A stretch of 64,000 nucleotides of DNA, from contig OZ316895.1 of the NCBI GenBank assembly GCA_973895155.1, positions 13,255,186 through 13,319,185 of the forward strand. Reading direction: 5' to 3'. The notes below the pieces were generated by a model. The model saw only the letters and a program-made list of their open reading frames with translations. It was not told where the DNA came from and did not search any database. The DNA comes from Marsupella aquatica. Taxonomy: Eukaryota > Plantae > Marchantiophyta. A program made the position numbers and the translations under genes. Positions within the stretch are counted from its first letter, which is position 1, and every line of letters starts with the position of its first letter. Below, one piece after another: positions 7,705-52,666 of this stretch.

Positions 7705-9801
<2,097 letters not shown>

Positions 9802-11829
9802 TGCGACCTGAGGAGTAACAGCACACCAGAAACCCATGTCAGGACTTCACATCAAGAGCGTACAGAGGCAATTCAAATACCTACAAGGCAACGAGAGATC
9901 TCGTACAGCAGCTCCAAATGATTGTATGGAGTAAGATATCAACAGTTACAAAAGATGGAGCCACTACACGAACACCTTGCAAATTATGCACTGAACAACC
10001 GAAGGATTCCGACAACGGTACGCAGTGCGCGGAAGAGCGCCAAGCCTCAGGCAGGCGCCGCATTGCACCCACCATCAAGCAGATTGGGTACATTTCGAGG
10101 AGACAGAAAGCACCTCATGACACAGAATTTTCAAGGCATCGGATCTTCTCTCTCTAATCTCCTATCTGGACTGATCTCTGACGCCAAATCTAAGGCAGGT
10201 TCACACACAATATGAAGGACATCGAAGGGCTTCTCTTTGGGTAGTTTCTCAGGAAATGCACAATCTTAGCGATTCAGACAATGAGGCCAATATCGAGTAA
10301 TACAAACGAGGAGATTTCGTCGAAAATGTAAGGCAGAGCTGATCCTTGGATTGAAAACAAAGGATTCGCTCCACGACGATGAACGACAAGTCCTCGGAGA
10401 CGGATCCGTCGATCCAGTAAGGCCACTTTCAACTAATAGAGGGCATTCGTCAAGGAGGAACAGAAAAACTCTGCCACTTCGTCATGTTGCGTTGCAAAGG
10501 ACGACCACTTGCCCTCGGCGACCAGTCGATCGATCTGTTCAAGTGCCAAAGCTCATAGTACGAACTTACCATCGCGTCACTCCTCCAAGGGCTAGGACTC
10601 TGCCTCGATCGTCGACTGGAAGTCGCAACCTCCTCCCTTGCTCTCTCACAGTCCGAAAACGCCGTTCCGAGCCTTTGCCTTGATGTCTTGCGGACCAAGC
10701 GACTTTCTAAAACGACCACTTCTGGAGCTTCAGGCAAACTTTCCTCTATCACCCCCAACCCCTCCGTCTCGGATAGCACGTAGTTTTATGCTGGTTGGAA
10801 GACACTCCGTCTGTCTAACCCCGTCCCATCCCGCTCCTCGACCGATTTCGTTGTCCAATTCCTGCCGGATGGGCACCGAGCTTTTCCTTCCCAGACTTAG
10901 TGTTCCACGTGCCCCATCAGGCCATCACTTTTCCAGACGTGAAGGTTCCTTCTCTACACTGAAACCTATTATTATTGCTCCCCGATCCGGTGATCCCTAT
11001 CCCAGCGGAGGTGGCTTCCTCGTCTTCGCAGCATGGCTGCGTCAGTACCGTAGGCGAGAGCAGATGGTGGGCAATAAAGAATAGTAATGCCTCTGGTACC
11101 GTGGATGCGTGGGCAGGGCTAATATTCGTGATTCGGATGGCGCAGGCCCTTGCCAGGTCGCTTCCCTGGCCACATTTTTTTGGTATAGACATGATACGAG
11201 CCGTGCGTAACATGTGAAAACGGACGAGAACCACTCCTCCTCTCCCGCTGTGCCAGCCCAGTTTCTGTTAGAGATTCTGCAGTCGCACTGGTCACGACTA
11301 ACATGAGGACGCTCTCACGCTCGCTTGCTTTCGTTCGCTTCAGCCTTCATGGCTTCCTTCACATCGACAGCTGCCGCTGACGGCTCTGGTCTTCCTCGGA
11401 CCTCGGTAGCTTCCCACCACAGCTTATTCGGCGAGAAAATGATGCCGAACGGAATGACAGAGAGGGGTGCCGTCCGGACCTCGCTGTCGTCTCCGCGTCC
11501 CCTTCTCTCGACTGTGCCCTCACTGAGCGTGGTCGTTGCCGTGTGGTGCCGTGGACTCGGACGGCGTCATTGGCCTTCTTCGGCGCCGGACTGCCGCGCG
11601 GCCTCTCGTGGCCGGTGGGCTACCCCCACTACGACTGTGCTCCGCCTCTGTAGCCGCTGAGCTTTCGGAACGGACCGCCCACGGACCGTTAGTCGCTCAC
11701 TCCATTCCATTCTACGGACCGCCCCCGCCCCGGCGACTGCATCTGGGTTGAAGGCGTCTCTCCTTTTGGACCCGACTCCCTCGAGGCACCCAGTTGCTCG
11801 AGTGTTTGTCTCAGAGTGAACTGTCTCGA

Positions 11830-14989: not shown

Positions 14990-16160
14990 CCCTTCCATAC
15001 TCTTCGGACCCCCAGTCCCTGCAGCCCATGCACATTCCCTGTAACCAAGCCCCTTTAACCCATACTGAGTTCCTACAGCCCCGTTGTCCTTGCAATACTA
15101 TTTGTAAACGTTTTTCTCTAAAGTGGCTAATGTCACCTGGTACAATTCAAAAAGAAGATTCGAAGAAGTGCTATTTATATAAAGTTCTTAGATTAATATG
15201 TGACCATTAGATCTTCCTAGATTCACATATATATGTTGCAAGAATATGTTGAGGAGAGTAACAGATATCAAGGAGAGGCAAAGATGGCTAGGTGGGAAAA
15301 TAATTAAACCAAAAAAAAAACTGACTAATTTTAACCCAAAATGGCTATTACATTTTCAGTGGGGTTGCAGACTGGCAATTTCACAGCAGCTGATCCAAAA
15401 AAAATGGGGAAGGGCAACTTTGAGATGCCCTGTTGCAACATCTGCCGGGAAAATTAAATCATGGGGTTTGGGAAACCGCCCATGGGTTGACTCAACATCT
15501 GTAGGGCACCAACACGTTTGTGCAGACCAGTTTTCAGTGTGGACACCATTGTTATGACCATACAAGTTAGTGACAAAAGTTCCCATGACCCACGCCCTTG
15601 CCCAAGCCATAGCATTCTGGGTGCAGAAAGACACCGGGGAAGGGCTACTTGGAGATGTCCTAGTGCAACCCAAAAACTTCCTGAAAACCTCCTGCTTGCC
15701 TCTTGCCCTCCTTCTGCAGGACACAAGGAAGCCTCTAGGATGCCAAGACAATGCTGCAAAGTGGTCACCAGAAGAAGGAAAAGGAGTGTATTTTTAAGTG
15801 CAAATGAAAAAAAATTAAGTGCAAGATCTGCCAAATTCCACCCCACTAGAAAATACGAGCCACTGTTTGCAAAAACTAGCAAGTTTTTCTTTCACCCTCC
15901 CACCTAGCCACATACCCATTTGCCAGATCTAATGGTAGTAAATTAATCTAACAAGAATATACAAGAAATATTTTAAGAATCGTTACTTTGCCAGGTGACA
16001 TTGGCCCTATGGTAGAAAAGGAAAAACCTTCAAAAATAGGCTGGTAGGGAGACCAGGATTGTATCGTACCAGGCTGGTCGACCATGGAGCATTGCAGGGT
16101 CTGAAGGGACCGGGGTTACAGGGGATGTGCAAGGGCTACAAGAACCGGGGAAGGGGGAGT
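14990..16160. mobile_element. Foldback-type non-autonomous element with long (~350-400 bp) imperfect inverted arms
   Basis: Collinear nested inverted matches: gcagcccatgcacattccctgtaacc (~15021) with ggttacaggggatgtgcaagggctac (~16114); ggctaatgtcacctgg (~15125) with ccaggtgacattggcc (~15991); accattagatct (~15203) with agatctaatggt (~15925); tggctaggtggga (~15284) with tcccacctagcca (~15898). Confidence 0.7.
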
Positions 16161-16732: not shown

Positions 16733-16775
16733 TGTGATGGACAAATGATAATCACCATATATAGAATGTGAAATG
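16733..16775 (-). repeat. Copia 3' LTR, distal part (split by the gypsy-like insertion)
   Basis: tgtgatggacaaatgataatcaccatatatagaatgtgaaatg matches 35559-35601 with 2 substitutions. Confidence 0.92.
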
Positions 16776-17088
16776 TGTCGTGCGCATACACATCGCTACA
16801 CAACATACATCGCTTGTCACATACATCCACACATAGTCACACTGCCACATCACAAATACAAGAGAATGGAATACAAGTGGAACTCATGTCCACACATGTC
16901 CAAAACCCACAATCGCCCCCCTAGCTGGGAGTAAGGTCCCCTTACTCTAGCTAGCCATGAGTTTTACAAGGTTGATATACACCTTTTAGGTGTGAAGATC
17001 AGGAGGCCGGGTGCAAGTGAGCCCCATCGATCACCTACCTGCAATCCATATCTGCCAAGAGAACACAAATGATAACTAGTCGACTTCA

Positions 17089-17227
17089 CCGACACTGAGG
17101 ACACAACCATGATCCACTAGGAATCACCTGCAATGGTGGTGTCAAACATGACATGTGCCATCCTCTAGAACACTTATCACAAATCAACATAGTAGCTGCT
17201 CCCTGAGCAGATCCACACAACATACAT
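17089..17227 (-). other. PHD finger at the integrase C-terminus
   Basis: C4HC3 pattern CMLC..MLICDKCSRGWHMSCLTPPLQVIPSGSWLCPQC, directly before the stop. Confidence 0.92.
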
Positions 17228-20200
17228 TTCAAGCCAGCATGAACATGTGCCAAGCTTGGATCTACTGTACCATCAATGTCGGGAAGGTGACATGGTGCAC
17301 AGTTATGCACATGATCCTTCCAAACCATACCATCGCGTCCCTCCAACATCAGGACACCAGAAGGCAACACTTCACGCACACGTAAGATTGTCCGGCCTGC
17401 GGTCACATCAAGTGTTGTGGGTGCTGTCTGCTGCAAATAAACATAATCACCAGGATGAAATCGTCGAATGCTTGCACGGTAACCTCCTCCACGAATAGTG
17501 GCATACCTCAAAGTATCACGATGTTGGGCAATGGCAAGGTTGTCAAAAGCCATGGGCATCACTCTCTGAAATACTCGTGCTCTCTTAGAACACACCTTGA
17601 CCCAAACATTAGGATCATCCAAGTTCACAACTGGTGCAGCATCACGACGAACAGCTGCTGGCAAATCTGGCTCTCTATCATAGAGCAAAAAGTAAGGTGA
17701 GAAGGATGCAAGTGATGCTTGCCGACTGAAACGGTAGCCCATAGCTAACCAAGGTAGTTGGAGATCCCAATCTCCCAGATGACCAACCTGCAAGCCATAC
17801 TTACGCAATCCTCTCTTCACAGTTTGCACAACTCTCTCAACTAATCCATCTACCTCAGGATGATCATGAGAGGTAGTACGATGATCAATCAGAGCTTGCT
17901 CACACAAACTCTCAAACTCTCCACGGAACTCAGTTCCCTGATCAGTCAACACCTCAGCTGGTGCTCCAAAATGACTGAGTACACGATCCAAAAATGTAGC
18001 AGCAACTCCTCCACTTGCTTTATCTGGCAACGCCACTAGCTCAATCCACTTGGAGAAGTGCTCCACCATGACCAAAACATACCGATTATGACGTTGGGTA
18101 AGAGGTAATGGACCAGCAAAATCCAAACTCCAACGATATCCCAAACCCATGATCGGCAACGGGTACAACTGGGGAGTGGGAGCATTAAATGATGCTCTCA
18201 CTCTATCACATACCACACACTTAGCTATCAACTGTTGGACATGAGTGTGCATACCACACCACCAATATTGTGTCTGCAGCAAGCTGTAAGTGCGCTTCAC
18301 ACCAAAGTGACCCAACTCCTCGTGTGCATGTCGCACCAAATGTACTCGTTGTGATGGTTTTGATACCACCAACACCCTACCATCATGCAGTACTCTCAAA
18401 AGATGGTTTCCCTCCCATCGAAACCTCTTGGCTCTCTGTAGAACCCTGTCACGATCTTTGGCATCAACACTATCAACAATAGAACCACTGCGCAGATATT
18501 CCAACACTCTCACATCATTGTGAATATCTTGCTGTCCAGAAGTTACCTCACCAACATCCACATCTGAAGACTCATCATCCACTCCATCCAATGAGGTAGA
18601 GTCCACAGATCCACTGTATGCTGGCACCCAACAAAGAAAGGCAGATGCATGCCATCCTGACACCATCTCCTTATCTGACTCATCATGCCATCTGGCTCCA
18701 GTTTCATCCTGCTGACTGGTACATGGATTGCGGCTTAATCCATCTGCATCCAAGTTCACTTTTCCAGGCCTATGCACCACCTGGAAATCATACTCCTGTA
18801 ACAACAATGCCCATCGTGCAAACTTCCCTGTAAGCTTGTCAGACTCCATTAACCACTTAAGAGGCTGATGATCAGTGATCAAGGTGAAGGGGTTACCAAA
18901 CAAGTAGCAACAAAAATGTGCAACAGCCCACACTGCTGCCAAACACTCTCCCTCATAAGAGCTATACTTAGCCTCTGTTGAATTGTTTGATCTATTGGCA
19001 TAAGCCACAACAAACTTATTCCCCTCATCATCCTTCTGAGTCAGCACTGCTCCAAGTCCTACTCCACTCCAATCAGTGTGTAGCTGAAATGGTCTGCCTG
19101 AAATGGATCTTCTCAAAATAGGGGATGATGCCAATCTTTGCTTCAACTCCTGAAAGGCATGCTCTTGGTCATCACCCCAAATCCATTCCTGATCCAACTT
19201 AGTGAGTATGGTCAAAGGTTTAGCAAGCTGGCTAAATCCTTTAACATACCTCCTGTAGTAGCTCGCCAATCCCAAGAATGCACGAACTCTACTCACATCA
19301 GTAGGACAAGGAATTTGTGTAATGGCCTCCACTTTAGTCTGTTGTACACCCAATCCCCCTGGGTATATAGTGTGGCCCAAATACTCAATCTGGTCTTGGA
19401 AGAACTTACACTTGCTAGGATGGAGCTTCAACCCATGTGCTCTCAATCTCTCCAACACAATCTGCAAGTGTTGCTGATGTTCTTCCATAGTAGAAGAATA
19501 GACCAAAATATCATCAATATAACATCTGACAAAATCCAAACCTGCAAGGATTTGATCCATGACTCTCTGGAACTCAGGTGGTGCATTCTTCTACCCAAAT
19601 GGTAAGAATAACCACTGATACAAACGATCTTTGCCATAACAATCAATCCCCCAGAATGTTGTCTTGGACTTGTCAACATGCCTAATTGGAAGCTGATGGT
19701 ACCCTGCCCTCAGATCCAATGAACTGAAAACCTTTGCATGCCCCACAGCATCAAAGATCTCCTCAGGTGTGGGCATGGCATATCTATCAGATTTTGTCTA
19801 GCGATTAATGGGTCTGTAATCACCACACATGCGCCTATCTATGTAATTGCCATGCACATCCTTCTTGGCTGACATCACTGTGGCAGATGCATACTCCCCA
19901 TATGAAATCTCCACCAATCCAGCCTCCAACAAATCTTGAGTTCTGCTTTGAATTAGAGCTCTCTCCATGTCACTATAACGGTATGGTCTATGAAAGATTG
20001 GCGCATCACTAGCCAATTCAATCTGAATACCAGGACCCTTTAATGTCCCCAAATCCTTCATGCTAAATGCAAAATAATTCCAGTAACTCTTCAGGAATCG
20101 ATGCATGCGATGTCTCTCCTCCCCTGTCAACTTAGGGCCAAGCTGTGGTTCCCAACTCTCCACCAAATCCCTAATATCTCTTTGTAGGGTAGAAGAGATA

Positions 20201-20404
20201 GTCGATGATTGCTATTTAGTAGTAGATTGAGCAGTCCCTTCTTGCTCAACAATGTGTCCAGCCTTGGCCAATCCTGCCATAGGTCTATGGACTATCTGCT
20301 CGTCCCCAGCTGTGGTCAGTACTGTCTCAATGGACCGCAAGCTCACCAAGTGACAATCAGTAATTCCAGCAGAGCGCATCTGCAACTGTTCAGCTACTCC
20401 CAAG

Positions 20405-21348
20405 CTGATAATCAAAGTCAAACAATTCAGATCCATTGCTTGACCAAGAACCTGGCGCTGCAAACCCTCTGACACAGAGGCAACTGCAGTGGTGCCAGTC
20501 AAAAATCCCATAGCACGCTCTCTCTCATCAGCAGTAGGTTCCACTAACTGCTGGAGAGCTGTGTCCCACACAAGTCCAGGGCCACCTACTCTGAATGCAT
20601 ATGAAGCAGAGTGGCTTACAAGAGTGGGTAATGCACAACGTGGGCGCCCAACTGCATTGACCATTGCCAATGGAGGTCTATCAGGTTGGGTCACACCCTG
20701 TGCACGACGCCCTAGATCCAAAATAGCATCCACCACTAAGGCGGGTGAGTATGGAATGCTATCAAATGCGCGCTTCAGCACCTCACATGGGATCAAATTA
20801 CTCCACCACAAGCGTGGATGATGTGCACGAGAACCCACACGTGCAGCATCCAATAACACAGCAGGTCCAATCCAAGACCTCACCTGGTGAACACTGGCAA
20901 CAATCCGACTACGATCATCACCTAACAATGGCACATTCTCCAAAATGTATGCTGGAGACTGTGTCTGATGTAGCTGGAGATGACACAGCACCCGTAACAT
21001 CTCCCAAAATAATGCAGAGCGTGGATCATGAAGTCCATGCCCAACGCCAGCTCTAGATTGGCCCTGACATGGCCAACCAGCAATCACCAAATCAATGGGG
21101 CCAACACGATGCAGATGATCCGCCCCCAACAATGAAATATCAGTAGGTAATGCATGCTGATAACCACGAACAGCATCCACTGGCAGCAACTGTGGATATC
21201 TATCCACCAACATAGCCACATGTTGCAATGAGACCCTCCGTGCTGTCTCATCTATCTCCACATACAAATAACGACGCACAGGAATTTCTGCCTGAATAAC
21301 AGCAGCCAATCCAGTGCTAATCCCACCAAAAAGATCCAACAAACAAAT
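20405..21348 (-). CDS. DNMT3-like C5-cytosine DNA methyltransferase domain within the gypsy polyprotein (in ORF 20212-21477)
   Basis: Motifs in canonical order: I LDLFGGISTG, II YVEID, IV GPIDLVIAGWPCQ, LFWEMLRVL, VI ILENV, VIII LLDAARVGSRAHHPRLWWSNL, IX ERERAMGF, X RQVLGQAMD. These parallel DNMT3 (LSLFDGIATG, GPFDLVIGGSPC, LFENV, IDAKEVSAAHRARYFWGNL, EMERVFGF, RQRLLGRSW). Confidence 0.9.
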
Positions 21349-24300
21349 ACCCTTCGGTGGATACTGCCAAGCAATAGGAGTGGTATCCAATGGTGAAAGA
21401 GTCACAGGTCCATCTGCAAGAGACTGTTCTGCTCCCGAATGTGATGTAAAAGCATGACGCCACGCATCATGTCCCAATCGTGCTGCTGCCTATGGCAAGG
21501 CCTCTGCAGTGCCCCACACTAGTGGCACAACACTACCAACAGGTAATCCTCGCATGATGTGTTCCTCATGAGACTCCTCCAATGGTGGAACATCTGCTGC
21601 ATGCGCATTACCCTCAATCAAATCATCAAGTCCAGCAATTAGACCATTGAATGCTGCCAAAGACAATGGTGTGGATTTAGGACCTCCTGGCACAGGTCCA
21701 CTAAATCTCACTGGCAATTTGCTCAATCGAGCATCTCCTGACTGCCAATCAGGTCTATATGACACTGATTCCTCCCAAAAATCAAGAATAAATCCCATGG
21801 GGTAGAGCACTGTACATCCCACCAACACATCATATGACTCTGTCTTAGTCAAAATAGCTCGTGCCTATATCTGTGAGCTATCTGTGGTATGACCTTCCTG
21901 AATCCTCAAATCAAGAGGTCTCCTGGTGATGTGCTGTGTAGGTGTAGGTCCCCCCAATGAAGTCTGAATGGGAAAGGGAAAATCCTCCAAATCCTCTAGA
22001 CGCAATCCCAATCCACGTATGGCAGAATTTCCCAACATCAAGGGTTGAGCACCAGTATCCAGTAACACCCTCTCTGGCTGGTATACTGTTCCAGAAGGCC
22101 CAACTAATCAGAAGATACCACTCCGATTATCCAATGATACAACATTAGGTTTAAACCTAGTCCTCTTGAATGCAGGGCGTGCTGGTAAATTCACCAACCT
22201 CGCTGCTGCTGCATGCCATGTCTCACTAGTAGCAGTAGGTGGCATGGTCTTCACTACTTCAACACTGCAAGCTGCTTCTGCATGGGAAGCAACCACTGGA
22301 GTGTCCTCATAGAGTGTAGCTGCCAATCTGAACACTTCTGCAGGACCAACTCCCAAGTTCAGCATGTCTGTCGCTGAAAATAATGGGGCGCGTACCATGG
22401 TAGTAGCCGCCCCTAGCAAGATACTTGTCATCCCTACTGCATCACTCCTTGATTCTGCCAACTTACCCATGCCAAGGTTTGTCCGAACCGGGTTCATATA
22501 GGTAGTCTGAACTGTCTCTGACAATGTAAAAGACTAAGGAAGCTTTGTCTACCGACGTGCATCCCCCCTCTATGGATCTAACTCCACTACTGCTCCTTGT
22601 GGCTCAAGAGCTTTGGCTGCTCCACATGTCAAAACTGCTGATGCATCAATATGTGCAGTGCCACACATGAATCCCATGGTGGCAAGGTCTCCATCAGCTC
22701 CATAAGATGTGGAAGGACCATGGGATGTGGAAGGTCCATAGGATGTAGATGCCCCATCACCAGAAGTAGGTCTCACCTGGGAACTAGCCATGGCAGCTAG
22801 CTGTTGCTCCAATTGAGCAATCTTAGCATCCTTTGGATCTATGGTTACAGCAGGGGCAGCGTCACCTCCCTGTCTCCCTGCATGTGGCATGCCACGACCA
22901 CGTCCACCACCTCTACCTCCTCCTCCTCTTCCCTGATCATGTGTACGGGATACTCCCCTCCGTAACTCAGGGTGGAGTGAGAAACACCTATCTTTGGTGT
23001 GGCCAGGAGCTCCACAATGATCACATTGTCGCTGATCAGGCGCTGATGCTCCCCCTGATCCTCTATGATCTGGGCAATATCTCTGTGCATGATCCCCACC
23101 ATAGGTCCAACATCCTGATTGATGTCCAGCATAAGAGGGCACAGGTCTCTGGCTGGTAGACTCTTGTGTAGTAGGCTTCTCCCTCTGGCTCTTCTGTGTA
23201 GTAGGCTGTGGTGTGGGTGTAGATGCAGCCTTTGGTGCTTCCTTGGCAAATTCGGAAGTCACCACCTTCTCATTCACCATATTGAGCTCAATGCGCTAAG
23301 AAAGTGTAAAAACAAATGCTAATGTAGGATCTGCATCCCTAAGCAGGGTGACATCTCTCACTCTGCATCGCAATTCTCTATCCAGGATTGCGTATCAAAA
23401 CTGGACTGCCTAAGCCTCTGTCACTCCCTTGGTGACAGTGATTAATCTGCGCATACGAGTGTATGCCTCACGTAGACTCTCTCCAGTCTTGCGCTAAAAC
23501 TCCTGGAGACCCTTCAACTTATCAGTTCTCACACCCTGATAGTTCTGCTTCAGTACCTCAAAGAATTCCACCACATGATTAAATGCTGGCGCAACTCCAG
23601 TCACTGTCACAATCACACCGGCAGGAGTAGCGGTGGATGCTGCTGGAGTGCTGCTGGTGGATGGTGTGCCACTCTGGCTAGTGCTGCTAGACGAAGCAAC
23701 AGTTGTGGCAATGTGTTGGGCAGCCACACTAGTGCCATAGGTGATGGACAAATAATTAGGCGACCAATGCTACCTCCATGCCTCAATCTCAACCAAATGA
23801 GCCTTCCAAAACTCATGGTAGTCATCCATGGGTGGCCCCTCCAAATGCTGAAATGATCCCTTCCATGCCATGAAAGGGGTAAACAACGTGGCGTTACGCA
23901 ATGTCTGCATATCGCACCACGTATCAAACTCCTAGATGAAATCATCCAGATCAATCGTGTCAACTGCACCAGAGTATCATCGTGGGCCCTTTGTAGCCCC
24001 GTACATCTCTTCCATATCCCACAACAAAGGTGCAATCGCCTGATGACAAGGAGAACTGCTCACAGAGTCCTCGTCAAAATCAGTGTCTGAAGCTATGCTG
24101 TTGACTGCTAAAAAAGTCGTTGGCCGAAACTGCGCCCCACTCCGAGTGAAACCGGTCCGTCGTCCATCGGGTAACCCAACAGCACCAGAAGAATCCGTGG
24201 TGACCAACCTAACCTAATCTATATGCTAACCCTAAGGGCAATCTGTCCCTATCAGCAACACAAGCACTCACCATGGTGTGTTGGGCATCACTCCAACATC

Positions 24301-25893
24301 ACCAGGAGAGAAATACGTAGCACAACTAGAATGTCCGATTGCAAACCCGGATCACTCCTATAGAATCAAGCGCCCACGCCAAACTAACATGGCGCATAAA
24401 CAGGAAGCATATGTGGAGAGGATCCAATCAACAAGAAGAGATCCACAATAACTCTCCACATCAATAGTGATCATACATCAATCAAACAATGTTCATAATG
24501 TTCAATGTGGGGCCTTCATAATAGGCCTCTCAATGTTCAATGTTGTAGCTAAGGATCCATGCACAATTGATTCAATCCATGCATCTAGATGGATTTAGAA
24601 GCATCAAAAACCTTAAGGGAGCTTATGATTTGCCCCAAAATGGCAATCTAAACAAACTAATATGTGTATAAAATGCCTAAGTGCTCATTCCATTAACATC
24701 AAAGTGGAAAGGAGTGTGTGTACACAAGAGCACTTAAGAACCACATAGTTAAGCGCGTGGGGAAGGAATAGCTTTGGGATGGGTGACCTCTCACTTGTAG
24801 TTATGCACCAAATTGACCGCTCCAAAATCAGCAGCTTACAACTACTCCTCACGTACCAGCAAGGGCTTGCTGGCCCGCCCGCTCCTGCTCCGCCCTCACG
24901 CCCCTCGTCCCGAGTAACCACGAGTTGCCTTGAAGCTTTCTTCACGAAAATGCAGTGTCGACTACGAGCGACCCTTCATGTCGTCGCTATGCGATCCGGT
25001 GATATCTATCCGTCATCCCTAGCTGACGGCTGCTTACGGATCAGAGGTCGGAAAAGTAGCAACTTTCGATGCTACTTCCTTCACAAAAATGCGGGTTTCA
25101 CACCACACACGTCGGATGTCAAAAACACAACATTCGGGATCTCTTCGTTCACATAACAGAGCGCGTGTGCAAGCGCCGGCTTGCAGCAAACAACCCCGAT
25201 GCAATCTCGCAACTTTGAGAGTCAAGTTCCTTCAGAAAATAGTCGATCAACACATTACAGGTTGCGGAGCGTATGGCGAGAGCAAACAGTTGCCAAGCTA
25301 ACAATTTCTTCTCAACTGTGGCTCGTAGAACTCCCGATCTGTCCTTTGATGATTCGATCAAACGGTAGCACAGATCAGATACAAACTTCTCAACATCGAC
25401 TATAGCAAATCAAAATACCGGCGATCAACTCCACAATCTGAGGTACCATGGATCACAACAACAGCTCCAATCGATTCGATCTACCACAAATCGTCAATGA
25501 TAAACTCAGACTCTGAGCTTCTGTCCGCACAACAGAGTTTGAAGCTCCTGATCTTTCAATATAATCTCCATACAATCGGCACAATGATCCCGGTCAACAA
25601 TACCCCATCGATCCCGCATCGATCCAATCACACACGTATATTAAGCCAATGCACCTTGCACTACTCAAGGAATCCACGTTACACAAGCGGAGCTCACGGC
25701 CACCATAGCCACTCAAGCTCCTCTCTCTCCAAGGCTCAACATTGAAAGATGACCTTTCAATGCCTCACAAGTGACAAGTACCCTCTCACACAAACCTGAC
25801 GGAACCTTATCGGCTCATATAGCACACATACCAAACATACGAATCTAGATAGTACGATACACTCTAACACTACCTAGAATGGTGTGACAAATG

Positions 25894-25954
25894 TCATGAT
25901 ACATATAGATGTGCCGGGTGACCGGTTGGTCCAGTCAACAGGTGGAGTCTAACA
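25894..25954 (-). repeat. Copia 3' LTR, proximal part, preceded on the minus strand by the PPT (25955-25962)
   Basis: tcatgatacatatagatgtgccgggtgaccggttggtccagtcaacaggtggagtctaaca matches 35602-35675 apart from 1 substitution and a 13-bp duplication. Adjacent ctccccct is AGGGGGAG on the minus strand. Confidence 0.92.
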
Positions 25955-26266
25955 CTCCCCCTTGTCTATATAGTGACAATTATGTAGACAACATAGACTA
26001 GGCCTATCATACCATGCTAATAGAGTATACATGATATGAGTACAAGCGAGGTAGACTGCCTCGTTAAAAAACCTTTATCAACTCTAGCTAAATAAAAACT
26101 TTACCGGTGTAGCAGAGAAAAAGTTTGAGTGCTAAAGGAAAAAGAGTGCAGCCTAACAATCCTCGTCGTAAGAAATGTCAATACTAAATAAAATCAGATG
26201 CTATAGTAAATCTAGCTTCAACATCTGTCTCAACAGTAAGTCGTCAGTATCATGTCAGCAGTAGTA

Positions 26267-27464
26267 TCAATCGCCATGTGGAGCAGCAGCCTCCACGGTC
26301 ATCATGCATCGCACGCTCCGCAGTCCAATCGCTTGGCAGTGTCGATGATGAACGGCCGGCGATAGTGATTTGGTGAAGAGATCCGCACAGTTGTCTGCAC
26401 TTGAAATTTGTAAAATGTTGATCTCTGTTCCATGTAACTCGTGGGTGTAGAAGAACTTTGGAGCTATGTGCTTCACGCGATCGCCTTTGATGAATCCTTT
26501 TGTGATCTGCTGTATACATGTTGCGTTATCCTCAAAGATATTAGTAGGCTTCGTTAGTGTTGGTAGGCCGCATTTAGTATTGATGTGATTTATAAAAGAT
26601 TGTAACCAAACGGCTTCGCGACTAGCTTCATGTACAGCTAAAATTTCAGAGTGATTCAATGAGGTTGCTGTTAGGGTCTGTTTCACACTTTTCCAAGAAA
26701 AGCGGTACCCCCTATAGTAAAAACATATTCGGTTTGGGATTTTGCGGTGTCAGTGTCGGAAAGGTATCCGGCGTCCGCATATCCTATGAGTTTGTGGTTT
26801 GCACCGAATGGGTAAAATAACCCGGTATTAGTGGTGCCACGCAGGTACCTAAATACGTGCTTAACTCCATTCTAGTGTTTGGCTGTGGGAGTTGCACTGT
26901 GCCTAGCTAGTAAGTTAACTACAAATATAATATCCGGTCGGGTCTGGTTCGCTAAGTACATTAATGCTCCTATCGCGGAAAGATACGGAGTTTCCGGTCC
27001 TAATAGTGGTTCGTGTTCTTCGCGCTTGCGAAAAACATCAGTATTGTTTTCTAATGAACGTACCATCATTGGAAACGTTAATGGGTGTGTTAAGTTCATA
27101 TTGAACTATTTTAGGATCTTTTCAGTTTGTGTTGTCTGATGGAGCATCATACTAGTAGGTAAGATCTCTAGTTGTAAGCCTAAGCTAAAGTTTGTATGGC
27201 CAAGGTCTTCCATCTCAAATGTTGTTTTGAGATGGGTAATAGTATCTTCTGTAATTTGGGGTGTCCCAAATATGTTAAGTCATCGACATAAATAGAAACG
27301 ATGACATATTCGTCATCCATATGTTTAATAAATAAACATGGAGTAATTACATCATGGGAAAAACTCATGGAAATCATCTCATTGGTGAATCTTTGATGCC
27401 ATACTCTGCCACTTTGTTTCAGGCCATATAATGCCTTCAACACGCGGATAGCTAGTCCGCGACG
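26267..27464 (-). pseudogene. Copia RT (C-terminal part) and RNase H, frameshifted
   Basis: GLAIRVLKALYGLKQSGRVW, IYVDDL, PYLSAIGALMYLANQTRPDI, ATSLNHSEILA, KHIAPKFFYTHEL. Confidence 0.9.
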
Positions 27465-30400
27465 AGTATGCCAATCACGAAACTTGACTACCTTAACACT
27501 TAGCTCCGGCGTCGCTGGCTCCAACGTCGAGCTCCCTTATGGTCCAGGCCCGGATAGGCCATCCGGGGAGGACTTAACATGGGGAGACTTGTGGGCAATG
27601 AGACGTGGCACTAGCGAGGCAAGGGGCCAAGCTGGGAACACACACTAAGGACTTGGACTAGCCTATGGCTGGTTGGGTCAAGGGGAAATGGGCCGGGCTC
27701 AAGGATGGCCGTCCAGACCTTTGGATGGACTTTGAGTTCTAAGGGCTTGGGAGTGAGCTCCTCTTGGGCCCAAGGCCAATGGATTTGACGCCATTGGCAA
27801 CGGACGCTTGGGGCGCAAGTTGTGGCCCGATCCGGGTTGGGCCGGTCGGGGGCCCCGAGCAGCGATCAGACCTGAGGGCCTAGACATGAGCACTTGGTCG
27901 GCCCGGTCACAACGGGCTAAGGCACTCCGCTTGCAAATGCCTATCAAGAAAGTTATGGGCGTTGCCAGTTGGTGGCGCTCCCATTATGCGCGATGGGATC
28001 CGGGTTGGGGGCCAAATGTTTAGGGACCAAAGCTGGTCCGGGGGTGGCAGGTCTCCAGAAGCATAGATGAGAGGAGTGGTGTCTCCCTGGGGGCTAAGGC
28101 CGAGCCAAAGTCGTGAGCCGCGGCGGTCGCGACACTAAGGGAAACCGCCAAACGGAAATGGCAATATCTTCCCAACAGGAAGTCCGTTGGAGGACTTCTT
28201 GGGTGAGTTGGAAATCTCTTGAGGAGGGCTACATCCTCCTGAGCTCAGCTGGGTCTGGGGGTGCCGTGGGTTCTCATGGTTTGCGGGTGTTAGCTCGCCC
28301 GCTTGCCAAATCCTGCCGAACAGCAGCCAAGCCGCGTTCAGTCTCCCAAGGGAGCTTGCATTGGGGAGGCAAGGCCAAGTAGGTGCGGAGGCTGAGTTCC
28401 AAGGGTGCTCGGCCCCTAGACCACCAGTGGGGCAAACCGGGAGCGGTTGCTAGAGTCGGGGCCGTTCTGGTCCCAACGTCCTGGGACAAGCTTTAGGACA
28501 AGCTACGCTACTTGGGCCATGAACATGTTCTGAGGTCAGGGCGGTTAGTTGGTGATGGATAGGTACGAGGGAGAACCCGGGCCGCGCCCAAGGAAGAAAC
28601 TGTTCTGGACGAACAGTGGGCATGGGTTTTGGTTCTGGCTTATGGCATCGGGAGGACCTATCATTGACCTATTTACCAAAGTCTATTGAGCTTGAGTTAG
28701 GATGCTAAACTTGGCGAGTTCTAGATGTAGTATCACACTAGGGACATACATAAACATTTAAGATCCAAAACTCGGTATTCGTTCCCATGGAAGAACATGT
28801 AAGGAATGATTTTCTATGATTTAGCACTTATGAATGAATAAGGTAACAAAAACACAAAGTTGAGCCTTTTACTATGGTTGCTCAGCAAGGCATAGTTTTA
28901 AATGTCTGCTTGACATTAAAAATAAAATTAATAAATGGAACCAATTAATAAAACACAATGAAAACCTTGAAGTATGGTGAGGGAGTTAGGAAATAACCAA
29001 GGTGACTCCTCAACATAACTTCATTTGATATGATTTAGGTGGTATATCCGCAAGAATATTTCTGGAAAGGATTACGGTACTAGAATGATTACTAAAATAC
29101 CGTCAACATGTCTCAACTTTTTCTTCCAAGGTATCGAGTGGAGACTAGTAATCAATCACTTCTGTATCCAATCGGTACTTTGTGTCATAAATAAGAGACA
29201 CCATCATAATCAAATTTGAAGCCATAAGTAATTGGTAAGTAACAATCTTTGCATCTCGTGCACAAGCAATGTCACGTCAAAAACTATGCATCAAGAACTA
29301 AGGAATATGTGAAACATCACCAACAAGTAATCTATTTCCACATACTCAAAAGATTTAACAATCACAATAATTTTACTTCAAGGGTCCAAACTTCTCATTC
29401 ATTTAGACTTGAAGGGGGAAGAATTTATTTATATTAAGTACTCATATGCAATGGAGTGCTCGTTACAAACGGAGGTAACAAAGTTGCAATCTTGCAACTG
29501 AGCGCTCATGCAATTTCTTCACACAAAAAGTGGCAAAAACTCTACTACATATAGGCTAGCAGAAACTAAAGGGGAAAATAGATAATTAAAGTACATGCCC
29601 TATCATATCTCAAGGATCATAGGCTAAAGTAAAAAGTATGAAAATATGCTATAAGAGTACTCAAGGTTCAGTAGAATGTTGCTGGAATGAAAAACTAACC
29701 AAAAGTTATCCCTAGTGTAAACTGGAGTAAAAGTGTTTTTGCACTTTTGTGGTAAAACTAATAAATAGTGAGTTTATCAGAATTTTAATTTCTAACATAA
29801 AAGTCAAAATGGGGTGAAACTTTCCTAGGTGGAAGATTTATATACATGCTTCATGCTGGAAAACTTTCAGACTTTTCTGAGGTGTCTAAGTGCCTTAATA
29901 AAATAGGTGAAAAGTGCTGTCGGATAAAAAATACATTGTTCCGGAAAATTTTTCAAGTGTCGGAAGCGCCGTTGCGCCTTTGCGCTTTGGAGCACTAGCG
30001 CCGTTGCGCCTTTGCACACTCACGCTTAAGCAAAACTAAAAATGCTATAACTTCTAAACGACATGTAAGTTTAAGCCGATACTTTCAGGGTATGGTCTAC
30101 TATGTAAGGGCTATCTCCTGAAAAAGTATGGGACTTTTCTAACTATGATAACTATTTAACAAAAATGATGGAGATTGACTAATCCTGACTCGAAGGATGG
30201 AGTAGGTCAATCCTCCTGAAGTAGTGCTGACTGGTCCGGTTGTTGAACACTTGTGCAAGTATTCTCTTGCATAGCTTCTTGAATTATATCCATGTCTTGA
30301 GCGTGATGCCGATAGAAAGGTAAAGACTTCCGCTGTCGTTCAAGATCCAGAACAGGAAGTAGTCTCCGGTGTAGCATGGCATTAGGTAAAGTGTTCAGTT

Positions 30401-30877
30401 GATCTAAATTGCTACAAAAGGTAACTATACTGCACCTTTGACTTAGAAAAAGTTCAAAATTTATATTTTTTTCTATCATTTCTAACTATGTACTATATTA
30501 CACTAGATCCGGAGGGGTTACTTACCGAGGTGCTTGGTTGCTTGTGCAGACAATGAGGACCGTTGAGTAGCGGTCCGTGTAGGTGAGCGAGTGCGACTTC
30601 GTATGGGAGGGGCCGCAGGTGGTGCTAGAGGCACTTGGATGCTTGCTCGAGGTATTCCGTGGAGGCGTTCGGGCACCAAGGGCACTTAGGCGCAAGTGTT
30701 GGGATTGGTGAGGGCGCTGGGTGGCGAGGTCCACCACTATGCCATACGGTTGACACAAGGGTGTCATTGTGATGAGTTACATGTGTAGATGACACATTAG
30801 GTATAACTTGAGGTGATTGGTTGATAATCTTATGTAAATATGGAATATGCGATGTAGCGCCTTGAGCTAGAGCTCAA
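27465..30877. mobile_element. Unclassified 3.4-kb non-coding insertion in the copia RT (possible large solo LTR or non-autonomous element)
   Basis: CGACG duplicated at 27460-27464 and 30878-30882. Excision restores the in-frame RT peptide PELEERRGLAIRVLKALYG. No recognisable ORF inside. Confidence 0.8.
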
Positions 30878-33800
30878 CGACGTTCCTCCAACTCAGGAGG
30901 TGATCGTATGTATAGACTGTAAGTGTCTAAAGTTCCATATAAATATGCAGTTGCAACGTCCAGTTGTCGCATCTTAAGTTTGTGGAAAATGGAAAATCTA
31001 ATAAGGTATTGGAATGTTGTGCTTCCATAACCGGTGAGTAAGTTTCATCGTAATGAATTCCCGGTTGTTGGGTAAATCCTTTCCCTACTTTGTAGCGTAC
31101 AACCAGGCCTTTATCATTTCTTTTGCGGACGAAGGTCCACTTGTAGCCAATGAGGTGTACGTGTCTCGGTGTTGGCTCAACTGGGCCAAAAGTGTGTCTG
31201 CTTAGTAGGGAATCTAGTTCTCCATTGATAGTTTTTTGCCATTTAGGCCAATCTGGTCTATTTTGGCATTCTAAGATGGAGATTGGTTCAGGTGTATCGT
31301 CATTGATATGAGTTGCCACCATTAGTGCAAAAGCATCATCTATTGAAGTAGTATTTCTATCCCACATCGCATCGGTGTGTGCATAGTGGATAGAGATCTC
31401 TTCATGAGTTGTAGAGTCAGTATGATCTACGTCAGGTGGAAGAGGGATAGATGAACCACGCCTTCTTGGTTGTTTATCTTTTGATCCCAATGGTACCACG
31501 TTTGGAATGAGGCTGGGATGTACTTGTTGGCTCAACTGATAATTCGATGCGAGCGGATGCTCTCCCAGCTGGAATGTGTGAGCGTGTAACTTGTGATGTA
31601 TCGACAAAAGTGTTGGGAAGTTCCTCCACAATCTTGTGGAATTGCAAAATTTGCTGAACTTCTTTCTCCCCCTGATTTGTTCTAAGGTCTTGCCAAAATG
31701 ACGAATGTCTCTCCCACTCCAAAGGTGGCAGTGGGTGTTTAGGGTTTATGAGTGGTGGATAAATATGCTCATCAAAATGGCAATCTAAAAATCTGGCTTT
31801 AAAAACGTCGCCTGTTGTAGGCTCCATATATCGGATTATGGACGGTGAGTCGAATCCGATGTATATCCCCAAGTGTCGTTGGGGTCCCATCGTGGTTTGT
31901 TTAGGTGGAGTAATGGGAACCATTACTTGACGTCCAAATGAACGAAGGTGGGATAGATCGGGTTTGATACCGTTAGCAATTTGGTATGGACTATAAGTAT
32001 TAAAAGGCGATGGGCGGTATTGAATTAATGCGTTAGCCTATAATATGGCATGTCCCCAAGCTTAGACGGGGAGTTTTGACTGCATTAGTAGTGGGCATGC
32101 AATTAGCTGAAGGCATTTAATGACAGCTTCAGCTAATCCATTATGGAAATGCACGTGGGGTACGGGATATTGTACATCAATACCTAGTGATGTACAAAAG
32201 TTGTCAAAGGTTTTGGATGTGAATTCCCCTGCATTGTCCACCCTTAGTGTCTTAATGGGGTGATCGGGAAATTGTGCCTTCACGCGCAAGATTTGCGCCA
32301 AGATGCGAGGCATAACCATGTTCCGCATCGAAAGCAGGGTCATATTTGACCATTTGGTTGATGCATCGATCAGTACCATAAAGTAGCGGAATGGTCCACT
32401 CGATGGGTTAATTGGCCCGCAAACATCCGCATGTATGATGTCCAAGAATTTTGGTATCTTGGTTGGTAATTTTGATGTCGTGGGCCTTGTTATTAGTTTG
32501 TCGCGTGAGCATTCAGTGCATGGAGTGCTAGCTAGAATGTGGCGTATGTTGGTTGGAATGCCTCGTGAATTCTTAATAATTTTGCTTAGCATGGATTGAC
32601 CGGGGTGGCCAAGGCGTGCATGCCAAAGCGTGGGCAATTCGCTTGGTTGTGCATTATTATGCAAACATTCAATTTGAGTTACGTAAAACCTGCATGGGTA
32701 CGAGAAAATAGTCTCTTTAATGATTTTTCCCATACGGGTATTTTCAACCAAATGGATCACTTCTTGGTCTTTTGTATCGCCTATCTGGACGTGGAGTCCA
32801 TTTGCTCGTATATCCCTAAAACTTAGGAATTGCGGGTTGCATTCGGGGCGAAGATAGCTGATTCTATCTGGATTTCTGTACCTAGCGAAAGTCTAATAGA
32901 AGCTGGGCTGAAGCCCTCTTCTATCTAGCTAGGACCATTGATAGTGGTCAGTGATCTACTTGAAGGTGTGATCTTGTGGAAAAGAGTTCTATCCCAAAGG
33001 ATAGTATGAGTAGTCGCACTATCAATAATGCATATGCTAGGGCTATTTAGGTCTGGGGTTGTGGAGCTACTCGCCACTAAATGTGCCTCGGGTTGCACAT
33101 GTGTGTCTAAAAAATCTTGAATAAGTCTCTGGATTCCATAAACGCCCCGTGGGTCTCACGGGGTGGTGCCCTAGAGGTTTGGCCATCCTTTAGAGACTGT
33201 TGGTATAGGTCTCTAAGATACTGTGGAATCCTATAGCTGCGGGCCAGATGGTTGGTCATGCCACATTTGTGGCATCTTGGTCGTTCTCGCTGTGGTCGAG
33301 ATTGAGGCCGATCGCTTCATCGGTTGTTATGGTATCTCCTTCCACCGCGTCCGCGTTCTCGGCCGCGTGTGAAGTTGTTGTGGGAACTCTGTTGTTGTGG
33401 GCGCCCATTTGGGCGACCTCTGAAGGCCCGTCTAAATGCGCCGCGCTACGGGCGTTGGTTGAAGAAACTCCCCCTGTTGAGGGTGTTTCTCCTATTACCA
33501 TTCTTGGCGCGCTTGGTACCCTGCCTTGATGTGGAGGGTCCAGCGTTGTCTATGTGATGGGTTTCTCTCTGTGGTCCTGGGGTTAGCGTGCCCGCAGGAC
33601 GTTTCCTAGAGTTAACTAAAAGGAGCTCTTGGTTCCTTTCTGTTACTAGGAGGTGGACGATGAGCTCTGAGTATTGTCCGAACTTCATGTTCCGGTACTG
33701 GGTTGATAGTACACATTCGAAGAGTGGAACGTGGACAAGGTTTTTTCTAGCAAGTCCTTGTTTGCGACTGGCTTGCCATAGAGTGCAAGGGTTGAGGTTA

Positions 33801-34194
33801 TTCTGAATAGCTCACTATTGTAGGTTGAGATGGATGTAAAGTCCTGGACCCGTAAGTTTAGCCATTCTTGGCGTGCTCTGGGTAGTTCGACCAATGTCTG
33901 GTGGTCGAATCGGGTCTTAAGCGCTATCCATAGCTCGCGAGGGGTGGAGAGGTGCATGTACTGTCTCTGCAAGAACCTATGGATATGGCGTCAAAAAAAT
34001 ACTAGGGCCTTTGATTCATTAGCCTTGGTTAACGGGTCTGGTTGGGGTTCGCCTGCTAGTATGGGTTGGGCTATCCCTATAGCTGGGAGAAGGGTTAAAT
34101 AGGTCAGGTTCTCCTTGAGGTTCATGGACCACTCGAGGTAATTGTTACCGTCGATTTCTAAAGCTAGGAAAGTCAATTTCTCCAGGTTGGCCAT
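30878..34194 (-). pseudogene. Copia gag-protease-integrase-RT (N-terminal part), frameshifted
   Basis: Fragments 33991-34194, 33685-33972, 33446-33688, 32062-32760, 31474-31923 and 30927-31631 carry Bianca-like peptides (LPRARQEWLNLRVQDF, GIYIGFDSPSIIRY, GYKWTFVRKRN). Confidence 0.9.
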
Positions 34195-35546
34195 CTAGGG
34201 TTACTATGGCACTAGTGTATTAAGCTTCTTTTGGATGGTAATTAGGGCTTATGTAGTAATAGCCATAGGTAATAGGAATTGAAGGAGCACATTTATGAGA
34301 GATTTAATGCGGGTTCTTAGTAAGTAGGTAGCAAATGGATGGCTAAGGTTATGCCTGAAAGTTGCAAGGCCTTTTGTGATTAGGGGTAAGCAAAAATGAC
34401 TTTTTAGGGTTTTGCACTTCTGGTTACGTTTCCTTTGTAAATGTATAACTACACATCATTCCATGTATTTTAGGATTCCTTTGTATTGGTGATGCAGTTA
34501 TCCAGTTGTGCACTTAGGGTTGCAGTTATGGTTAAGTGCGAGTCTTCCTTTGTTATTTCAAGTTCCTTTGGAAATAAGTTGCACTTAGAGATGGATTGGC
34601 GATTATGTCACTTAGCGTTGTCTGTCGGTTGCTTGTCTCGGTGTTTCCTCGATGAATGTGACTTCAATGTCATCAGCGATCACCTTGGGTTGTGCCACTT
34701 GCAATCACCTTGGGTACAGCTTTCTAATCACCTTGTCAATCTCTCTTTTTGAAATTCCTTCTTTGCTTTTCGATAGCCTCTCTGCTTACTAGCTTTCTTT
34801 GAGAGTAAATTTAAGGTAGATCGATGTTGTCCTCTTCTTCTGGTTGCTTTGCTGCTGCTATGTTATCCTTCAGGTAACATCGATCGTGCGCTGTCGCCGC
34901 AAGACCTTCTCTCCATCTTTACCCTATCGATTCTCGGCGCCTCTTTTCTGTTCACTTCTCTGATCTTCGAGTGTTATCATTTCTCTCTCGGTCTGTCCTT
35001 ATTGATTCGCGATGCTGCCTGCCTGCTTTTCTCAATTCCTCACTCAATCCTTGTTACTGTCCCGATTGTGGTCTGTCACAGGCTCTTCCATCTGGGCCTG
35101 TCCTTATGAGGTCGCGAAGTCCTTATGGATGCTTTTCGATTTGGCATTAGGCACCTTTGGAGTCCTTTCTTGATTGTTCTGCCTGAATTTGTTTTCCATT
35201 CTCATTGACCTCCTGCTTTACTGTTCGCTCTTCATAATTGCGCAGCGCAGGAGAATTGCTCTGTCTGGTGACTCAAACTTGATCGCCTTTGATCCTTAGT
35301 TATCGATTCTCCCTTTAAGTCTCTTCCTATCTCAATTCCTTGCTTGCCTCGTCAGTTCTGAATTTCTCTTCTTGTTTTCAGAACGGATCCCTATTCACTC
35401 CTTCTCTTCTCGATTCTGTTTGTGTCTTTTCAATTTTCCGAAATTGCTCTTGAGGTCCTTATGATCTCCTCGGCAAATCTATCCTTATCTCGAGGGATCA
35501 ATATGTTATAGCTGTTTTCTTCTCTCCGCTCCGCTGGTGAGACAAA

Positions 35547-35558
35547 GTGCTGATAACG
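35547..35558 (-). promoter_or_regulatory. Primer-binding site CGTTATCAGCAC (internal/half tRNA-iMet type)
   Basis: Immediately follows the 5' LTR on the minus strand and lacks the usual TGG start; matches the PBS type known for Bianca elements. Confidence 0.75.
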
Positions 35559-35675
35559 TGTGATGGAGAAATGATAATCACCATATATAGAATGTGGAAT
35601 GTCATGATACATATAGATGTGTCGGGTGACCGGTTGGTCCAGTCAACAGGTGGAGTCTACAGGTGGAGTCTAACA
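35559..35675 (-). repeat. Copia 5' LTR (117 bp including a 13-bp internal duplication)
   Basis: TG...CA, matches the split 3' LTR, followed by the TSD CCTAA. Confidence 0.93.
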
Positions 35676-38600: not shown

Positions 38601-39858
38601 GAGCTCCGGGTGCCACAAAATCTTCAAAATGTTAATTTTTGACAAAACTCAATATTTTATTGGATGACTAAATGGATCCGGTTTGAGCTGAAAATGTTTG
38701 GTGTGATCTCTTAAGCTCAAGGTACCTACTGAAAAAAAGTTGGGACTTTTTGGATGTCTACTTTTTTTCTTCTTTTTCCCCCTTTTTCCCTTTTTTTGGA
38801 TGTCTACTAACACTCAATATTTTATTCTCAAAAATCTACAATTAGGAAATTTTCTTAAGTCCTTTGTTTTGCAAACGCATACTTTAGGCTCAATTTAAAA
38901 CCTGTTAACTTATTGGAGGAAGGTGTCTAGCCTAGATTGCAATTTGTAAAATAATGACATTTGAAGATACAGGATTGAGTGTTGGAGGTGTCCAAAACCT
39001 CCCAACATTTTTCAGTACACATCTGTAGAGGCGGACGGCCAACCATCCAAAGGGGCCTGGTCAAGTCCTTAGTACATTTTTGTGGTCCATCAAGTCCACG
39101 AGATGCTAGAGGGGTCTGGTTAAGTCCTTTCCTGTCATTTGCTAGATAAGTTAATTGATACTTAAACAACATCTGAGTGGGAAATGGATGTTACAACACT
39201 AGACATGGACCTCTGCATAATCCCAGTTGTCCCCTTTGCAATAAGGAATGTACAGGATGTGTGGCTCTCGTGGAGTTTTTAACAAAGCAAACTAAGGTCA
39301 CTTCTTGTACTAAAGATGGATTCCAGACTATTTTTGTTGAAAGGAAATTAATAAATGTGAATTCTCTTAAATTGAGTTTGGAAAGGTTTGGACCATTCCT
39401 CAATGTGGTCTACAATTTTAGACAAAACAAGTACCCCACATCAACCTTCACTTGGGCCCACTCCCTTAGATCAGTAACTACCACACTTGAGTGGGCCCAC
39501 AAGTTCTTGGCATCCCTATAATTGCACTTAAAAAAGCAGCACCCAAAGTAGAAGTAACAACCCACTCTCATATAAGAGAACAATCTGGTTGATTGTGGTA
39601 TGGAAAATCCATCTAACATGTGGCACATGCCACTTGCACAGTACACCACATGCTGTTGCATTTTTATTTGCAGTTACCAGAAATTGAAGTTCTTGTTGAG
39701 CTAACTCCAACTATTTTCACTCATGATAGGGTCCAGATTTGGTTCCAGAGAATAAAGAGCATATAATATTTTCCAACTTCTTGTAGACCACCCTAAAATA
39801 GACCCAAATTTTATCTGAGAGAATACAAAGCATAAAGTTGTCCTTAACTTTTTGCTAA

Positions 39859-46335: not shown

Positions 46336-52666
<6,331 letters not shown>

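Follow-up and report, generated by a model that had tools for sequence, protein, structure and literature searches.

A Gypsy-type retrotransposon with a DNMT3-like domain in the liverwort Marsupella aquatica, and its relatives in bryophytes

Introduction

What use can a retrotransposon make of a silencing enzyme, and do land plants contain elements that carry one? Both questions are raised by a 64,000-nucleotide stretch of the liverwort Marsupella aquatica (GenBank assembly GCA_973895155.1, contig OZ316895.1, positions 13,255,186 to 13,319,185 of the forward strand), referred to here as the window and numbered from its first letter. An original prediction, made from the letters alone, had recognised in this land-plant DNA a Gypsy-like retrotransposon with a DNMT3-like C5 cytosine methyltransferase (DNMT) domain in frame between protease and reverse transcriptase (RT). 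Elements of this kind have already been published, as KnitGypsy-Dnmt3 of the alga Klebsormidium nitens; the additions made here are a leaky-stop motif between DNMT and RT, a self-priming signature, and split ends with a palindromic junction.

Coding capacity and identity of the element

The coding region reads Gag-protease-DNMT3-RT-RNase H-integrase-PHD in a single frame of the minus strand, to which all coordinates of the element refer, with 16 in-frame stops and no frameshift; the window copy is dead. Pfam profiles for C5 DNA methylase (E = 1.8e-10), RT_RNaseH (7e-34), rve (1e-13) and PHD (2e-10) were matched, as were RVT_1 and Integrase_H2C2, and together with the single frame these matches bear out the predicted arrangement. 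An aspartic protease with the motif LLDTGA lies at 21740..22100, assigned from relatives and from a Pfam match (E = 7e-4) that is weaker than the curated cut-off. It is followed by the DNMT (20398..21360), the RT (19340..20050; YIDD; Pfam), the RNase H (18790..19179; Pfam), the integrase zinc finger and DDE core (17863..18357; sequence and Pfam) and, at the end of the integrase, a PHD finger (17089..17226; Pfam). No chromodomain was found in the element at Pfam E ≤ 0.01, and the PHD finger stands in its place after the integrase. Upstream of the protease are two zinc-knuckle-like motifs, the second of CCHC type (22950..23100; recognised in the sequence and through a zf-CCHC match in the relative P0045), and the Gag capsid region (23296..24015), whose start was set at a Met that aligns near the start of the Marchantia models. 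The capsid region contains seven decay stops and is 60-64% identical to P0001-P0003. Its putative Gag label rests on the capsid-like fold predicted for a relative, L024: the top 30 structural matches of that model are retroelement or retroviral capsids and their kin (Copia, Z 9.9; C-terminal domain of PEG10, Z 9.3, root-mean-square deviation 2.4, 85 aligned), the Z scores being modest for a helical model, and Foldseek returned nothing at E ≤ 0.001.

Several lines of evidence place the methyltransferase with DNMT3. Its motifs I, IV (GWPCQG), VI (ENV), VIII, IX and X are in unpermuted order, as originally described, and this order rules out a plant DRM identity. Among solved structures, phmmer ranked DNMT3A first (3e-10), above DNMT3B, M.HaeIII and DRM2 (8e-4). 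Structure prediction, proposed along with a profile search as a check on the domain, agrees with the Pfam match: an AlphaFold model (predicted local distance difference test 69.7, predicted template modelling score 0.72) retrieved DNMT3A first (E = 1.3e-15), and all matches listed were DNMT3A, DNMT3B or DNMT3C. The catalytic Cys (codon 21067-21069) is kept in 100 of 103 aligned relatives, and Glu-Asn and both motif VIII Arg are near-invariant among them. In motif VIII the window copy carries His at 20818-20820, a position occupied by Arg in 103 of 106 aligned relatives; the original prediction had taken HHPR as plausibly derived from HRPR. A separate observation concerns motif IV, in which Pro is replaced by Glu or Ser (ECQ or SCQ for PCQ), with the Cys kept, in 46 of 103 aligned proteins and also in L042 and L044-L080.

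The element is thus almost certainly a Gypsy-type retrotransposon with a DNMT3-like domain. Canonical Ty3/Gypsy traits are present (purine tract, TG...CA ends, 4-bp target duplication, DDE integrase and, in L024, a capsid fold), but the coding region is not enclosed by two like long terminal repeats (LTRs). Membership of the DIRS, PAT or Ngaro groups was considered and rejected, since those have a tyrosine recombinase and no target duplication, in contrast to the rve integrase and 4-bp duplications found here.

Insertion site and extent

The element is inserted in the 3' LTR of a Copia element, also on the minus strand (16735-35661; 25894..35661 beyond the insertion). The interrupted LTR (approximately 16735-16771 plus 25890-25954) can be compared with the intact 5' LTR (35559-35661), which represents the empty site, and this comparison fixes both ends of the DNMT element at 16776..25889 (9,114 bp, ends TGTC...GACA), flanked by the duplication CATT at 25890..25893 on the 5' side and 16772..16775 on the 3' side. 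The extent originally given, 17086..24207, was therefore too short, and the end structure had been missed. The Copia LTRs are very short (about 102 bp) and differ at 3 of 101 positions; a short duplicated start lies before the 5' LTR.

The insertion has no LTR pair of its own, and no further copy of the element was found within the window; its form is A-coding-purine tract-B. Repeat A and the leader occupy 24016..25889, A being about 330 bp by analogy with its inner end not fixed; none of five leader open reading frames (ORFs) has a Pfam match. At the other end, a polypurine tract (16913..16924) directly precedes repeat B (16776..16912), which ends in CACGACA and is 67-75% identical to the B region of relatives.

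Distribution and selection

Homologues were found in seven named bryophyte species, namely Marchantia polymorpha (60-76% identity), M. paleacea, Riccia sorocarpa, Calypogeia fissa, Sphagnum fallax, S. troendelagicum and S. tenellum, and in the algae Closterium and Haematococcus. Among the matches listed (108; best 120 of 414), which are mostly nameless proteins, none is named as a vascular plant's, so that absence from vascular plants is not shown, and none is named as from K. nitens. A metagenome scan gave 313 related stretches, 80 of which were kept (L001-L080); the largest subfamily (L001) is almost letter for letter the S. fallax model P0032 at the DNMT-RT junction. In contigs of four sequencing runs there is a high-copy family near the window sequence (8,067 contigs in X1), compared with which two decay stops in the RT are private to the window copy (best 40 of 486 differences). 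Viral contigs gave 30 matches, all weak (E = 4e-12 or worse). Two proteins of the family, P0060 and P0229, carry bacterial metagenome-assembled genome names and are likely mis-binned plant or algal contigs. From a search of 50%-representative proteins only the proteins themselves were used, because the profile included integrase columns and its counts are not DNMT counts.

Selection on the DNMT was estimated as the ratio of nonsynonymous to synonymous substitution rates (dN/dS; NG86). Between lineages it is 0.09-0.15: 0.12 for L024/L025 (dS 0.26), 0.09 for L048/L042, and 0.13-0.15 for the window against the L001 subfamily, where dS is near saturation. L048/L067 gave 0.20. Between decayed siblings, values are 0.47-0.76, and other domains are raised too (0.33-0.98). 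The low between-lineage ratios indicate that the domain is old and selected rather than locally captured, and with the homologues in seven bryophytes they dispose of a one-off capture. The family of DNMT elements is therefore real, under selection and widespread in bryophytes.

Trees of chosen sequences (RT, 33 rows; DNMT, 50 rows; quick mode, no outgroup) agree with one another in recovering a protease-DNMT-RT clade with a stop-bearing branch inside it. The stop-bearing elements form one clade with an SH-like approximate likelihood ratio test (SH-aLRT) value of 99 in the RT tree, and with a weaker value, 87, in the DNMT tree. A second architecture, RT-RNase H-DNMT3-integrase-PHD, is present in 172 of 362 proteins (P0033-P0108 and many of P0349-P0482; Haematococcus is named). 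The DNMT tree sets it apart (SH-aLRT 98) from elements with the order protease-DNMT-RT, which implies at least one move of the domain within the polyprotein.

A conserved stop codon between methyltransferase and reverse transcriptase

The original prediction took the stops in the frame as a sign that the copy is dead. The copy is indeed dead, but one of these stops, at 20212-20214 between DNMT and RT, is conserved in the family and did not arise by decay. It reads TAG CAA TCA (20206..20214; UAG-CAR-YYA) and is the sole one of the 16 with a CARYYA context. In the 36 loci that align to one of three anchors, the junction codon is TAG in 26, TAA in nine, TAC in one and never CAG, and CAR directly follows 34 of 35 junction stops, as against 12 of 471 decay stops. 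The same stop is seen in undamaged relatives. For instance, L024 is open for 1,369 codons before its junction stop and for 1,047 after it (TAG CAG TTA), and L033 has a 1,047-codon open downstream frame (ORF2) after the same nine bases as in the window; the DNMT of each is 48% identical to that of the window. The window, L024, L025 and L033 all combine UAG-CAR-YYA with an in-frame downstream ORF. Similarly, the closest protein, P0231 (80-86%), terminates at the same residue as the window stop, and 28 of 34 proteins with protease and DNMT at an identity of at least 46% end 62-185 amino acids past the DNMT. The other six run on and are spliced gene models, the readable ones of which skip different stretches.

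If the junction TAG were simply decay at a CAG hotspot, and the DNMT a neutral passenger, then the fact that most of the window's 15 other stops are TAG would be accounted for. This reading, to which next to no probability was assigned, is refuted by the codon counts, by the stop's presence in otherwise open elements and by dN/dS of 0.09-0.15. UAG-CAR-YYA is the type I readthrough motif of tobamoviruses (PMC3542737), with which stable Arabidopsis lines show 6-10% readthrough and transient assays higher values (PMC2754532; both sources in the portions available). Judged by its sequence context, the junction stop is likely to be leaky, with ORF2 (RT-RNase H-integrase-PHD) produced by low-frequency readthrough. 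Frameshifting was discarded, since undamaged loci have DNMT and RT in the same frame. RNA 3' of the stop folds like shuffled sequence at three of the four junctions tested; at the fourth (L015, 2686-2785), which belongs to a subfamily with the weaker CAR-YYC context, a strong stem-loop begins 10 nt past the stop (z = -2.6).

Alternatively, the stop may be real and ORF2 be made from a spliced RNA, from an internal promoter or by reinitiation, with the DNMT still on the Gag side. We regard this as unlikely. Five gene models from Marchantia, Riccia and Sphagnum do bridge the junction, but they skip different stretches; an ATG lies two codons past the stop in the L001 subfamily, whereas the first Met of ORF2 in L024 is at codon 117, inside the RT. 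There is also a precedent in Tca2, but ORF2 is in frame here and CAR after the stop is kept in all subfamilies. Under any of the expression routes considered the DNMT ends the Gag-protease ORF, and it would therefore be made at Gag level, in excess over RT. The first proposal, that the enzyme would be packaged with RT and integrase, is thereby revised for this clade: with the conserved stop the DNMT is not just a piece of the RT-integrase polyprotein, and particles would take it up with Gag, in larger amounts than RT.

Several observations weigh against readthrough or against its importance. The junction stop is missing from a sister clade (about 40% identity; L042 and most of L044-L080), and this, together with the 172 of 362 proteins in which the DNMT follows RNase H, means that the family does not need the DNMT at Gag level. 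The linker cannot be aligned between subfamilies, and in only 2 of 23 tblastn rows does a stop share a column with that of the window, so homology of the stop is judged from its context and from its position, 51-58 codons ahead of the RT anchor. Nor can the 36 loci be counted as independent, since they fall into three subfamilies that include duplicates. In the largest of these (L001) the context is CAR-YYC, and the ATG following the stop would allow reinitiation. Finally, a similar-looking gag-pol stop in Tca2 was not read through in a reporter, according to the part of PMC2194720 available.

Element ends, priming and integration

Relatives end in one of two ways, as A-coding-B-A-B (B-A in 11 loci) or with a single terminal B (eight loci and the window). 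The full form is seen in, for example, L034, L043, L048 and L055, and the window copy is the reduced A-coding-B. Of nine elements with both ends, seven have an exact 4-bp duplication, while L021 matches at three of four positions and L047 at one of four; that of L016 was taken from end comparison, a pattern search having picked a later site. At the internal B|A junction the sequence CAYGACA-nn-TGTCATG is nearly palindromic, its spacer being 2 nt long in 11 of 11 loci; A'|B' joins are near-precise. As in the window, a purine tract directly precedes B in relatives.

No tRNA primer site was recognised, in that none of the nine loci shown has a TGG start after the 5' A, with no tRNA library searched. 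In its place, the bases after the 5' A are complementary to positions 162-183 of A, about 30 nt past TATAAA, in 21 of 24 applicable loci. This pairing is present in two clades of unrelated sequence, and in 16 of the 24 loci at most 3 of 300 shuffles reach the observed value (29 loci, of which five were left out, namely three 3' copies and two in which a different sequence follows A; the site had been noticed post hoc). The pairing makes it likely that relatives prime themselves independently of tRNA. The window's own candidate, a 10-nt complement in the leader (25750-25741 / 25560-25551) at the place used by relatives, is at most suggestive, being one of four such 10-mers in 1,700 nt and not above chance.

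From these features a cycle can be proposed. RNA would start inside A, about 30 nt past the TATA box, and its 5' end would pair just after A and prime the minus strand. Plus-strand synthesis from the purine tract would give an ordinary linear cDNA whose LTR is B+A; tract and primer-like site predict just such a molecule, whose ends are the points joined in A'|B'. The cDNA ends would then be joined, and the DDE integrase would open the circle at CAYGACA-nn-TGTCATG inside the LTR and insert it with a 4-bp duplication, as A-coding-B-A-B or, where the circle has one LTR or the two B repeats later recombine, as A-coding-B. In this scheme a terminal B at the right end arises only if the cDNA is end-joined and then reopened at B|A, and the TG...CA ends, DDE integrase and 4-bp duplication point to the integrase as the opener. 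On this pattern of ends, insertion from circularised cDNA is moderately probable.

A route without circles can also be envisaged, in which the RNA extends from A as far as the terminal B, and both ends of a linear cDNA are rebuilt on the internal B|A as template before the cDNA inserts as usual. It resembles models for PAT/TOC1-type elements, and it would explain A-coding-B-A-B without any A-B-A-coding-B. We consider it doubtful, because in two clades the purine tract directly abuts the start of B and the primer-like site the end of the 5' A. With such positions the cDNA is predicted to terminate at B-start and at A-end, and it is these two points that A'|B' joins. The circle route nevertheless has a difficulty of its own: if the two B|A junctions of a circle were equivalent, A-B-A-coding-B would be expected as well, yet none of the 27 loci that have a 5' A (roughly 24 of them distinct) shows this mirror product, and the model must therefore lack some source of asymmetry.

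Possible role of the methyltransferase

In the cycle proposed above, each particle would contain far more methyltransferase than RT, and before insertion the DNMT3 might mark the cDNA at CG sites, either within the particle or once a circle has formed; the PHD finger may read histone marks at the target. Methylation of the element's own cDNA is given slightly better than even chances. The Symbiodinium (SymbioDIRS-Dnmt3) enzyme methylates CG in yeast. Against this, the KnitGypsy-Dnmt3 enzyme gave no methylation in yeast, a result its authors call inconclusive (both in the main text of PMC5890265). CpG depletion was rejected as a sign of self-methylation, since other Gypsy elements are equally low (eight segments, three loci; 0.28 vs 0.40); at codon 3-1 sites CpG is 0.11-0.25 in the DNMT element vs 0.67-1.09 in the older Copia.

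The DNMT could instead act in trans or as a brake, methylating genomic copies or invading viral DNA, or be a noncatalytic DNA-binding scaffold, and be kept for that reason. Trans and scaffold roles have both been raised before (PMC5890265 and PMC6338049, available text). Gag-level expression would provide a large excess of enzyme, and the motif IV replacements in relatives and the negative yeast result for the algal enzyme count in favour as well. But the Cys, Glu-Asn and both motif VIII Arg are near-invariant, and in every case the domain is fused to the polyprotein, in one of two places, which would suit an enzyme that acts in the particle; this group of explanations is rated rather improbable. 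The whole proposal, that is, a Gag-protease-DNMT3 ORF with pol by readthrough, cDNA methylation and circle insertion, seems moderately likely to us. More speculatively, an ancient green-lineage integrase clade, plentiful in peat mosses and liverworts, might integrate only from circles, at a genome-encoded palindrome in the manner of IS3, with one branch loading DNMT3 at capsid stoichiometry through the leaky stop so that its copies arrive methylated; we offer this tentatively, as possible but less probable.

Other features of the window

On the minus strand, 57337-63998 is an intron-poor run of ORFs with two NIF/FCP1-like phosphatases, a third similar ORF that has no match, a Ulp1 (C48) protease and a long Glu/Ala/Lys repeat; a large DNA transposon and an endogenous viral stretch are both possible readings. 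An HCT-type BAHD acyltransferase with a long Asn-Gly-His-rich insert is encoded at 7708-9846 (minus strand). Its best matches are several Calypogeia paralogues, with 76% identity to Calypogeia fissa and 55% to Marchantia, and these values by themselves point to a leafy liverwort as the most probable host. Inverted-repeat pairs at 38404-39135, 41038-42409 and 15175-15964 resemble miniature inverted-repeat transposable elements or small DNA transposons. At about 47589-47960 (minus strand) lies what is presumably an exon resembling pyrophosphate-dependent phosphofructokinase, with no Pfam match.

Implications

A 2019 review states that transposons that code for DNA methylases do not occur in land plants like tracheophytes (PMC6338049, available text). 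DNMT3 retrotransposons do occur in liverworts and mosses, including Marchantia polymorpha with its genetic and methylome tools, and the 2018 question of what a retrotransposon does with a silencing enzyme is therefore directly testable. In one branch the conserved stop has fixed the DNMT at Gag level, which would suit a role within the particle. If the circle route is true, the family would be a natural case of a retroviral-type integrase with circles as its normal substrate, a matter debated in retroviruses. There are practical consequences as well: LTR finders will miss these elements, and gene callers label their pieces as host methyltransferases or splice over the stop, inflating bryophyte DNMT counts. 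Literature reports of bryophyte DNMT3 retrotransposons, or of their readthrough, self-priming or circle route, were not found in a search outside which lay most subscription papers and the figures and main supplement of PMC5890265; the accessible text of 10.1101/363937 and 10.1101/2021.11.30.470311 does not mention such elements in bryophytes.

Comparison with known systems

KnitGypsy-Dnmt3 (de Mendoza et al. 2018; PMC5890265, main text) has a Dnmt3 in Pol, a Ka/Ks below 0.2 and DIRS-like repeats, and has been cited since as a streptophyte Gypsy-DNMT3 element (PMC12344493 and 10.64898/2026.05.21.726589, available text). It shares with the window family the Gypsy domains, the unpermuted Dnmt3-like domain, purifying selection and the A-coding-B-A-B layout. 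In contrast, its DNMT and RT are in one ORF, whereas a conserved stop separates them in the window's clade (not in the sister clade), and its host is an alga rather than a land plant. The published description, figures and supplement aside, is without readthrough, self-priming, a palindromic junction, 4-bp duplications or a PHD finger. The window element works like KnitGypsy-Dnmt3 but is not a strict member, because its DNMT and RT are not in one ORF.

SymbioDIRS-Dnmt3 likewise carries a Dnmt3 in a retroelement, and it and the PAT and Ngaro tyrosine-recombinase elements have split direct repeats, but the window family differs from all of them in its DDE integrase and 4-bp duplications. With regard to the stop, the resemblance is to type I readthrough in tobamoviruses, where an in-frame UAG with CAR-YYA sets a protein ratio (PMC3542737, PMC2754532). 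In MuLV, Tca2 and SIRE1, stops lie between gag and pol or between pol and env (PMC2194720), whereas the window stop follows protease and an accessory enzyme and not gag.

Self-priming without tRNA has been predicted for Tf1/Sushi and Tcn1 Ty3/gypsy elements, which occur in mosses, in a survey whose main text does not contain the words PHD, Marchantia or Klebsormidium (PMC6317226). Relatives of the window element share the self-priming complementarity, but those elements are chromoviruses, and the window family has a PHD finger, DNMT3 and split ends and no chromodomain. Transposases of the IS3 family (IS3, IS911) use circle junctions. Foamy-virus integrase cleaves the palindromic junctions of 2-LTR circles (PMC1180852, available text), and in these systems, as in the window family, a DDE enzyme would act on abutted inverted ends with a short spacer. 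Unlike theirs, however, the palindrome of the window family lies within the LTR and is part of the genomic copy, and passage through a circle would seem to be obligatory.

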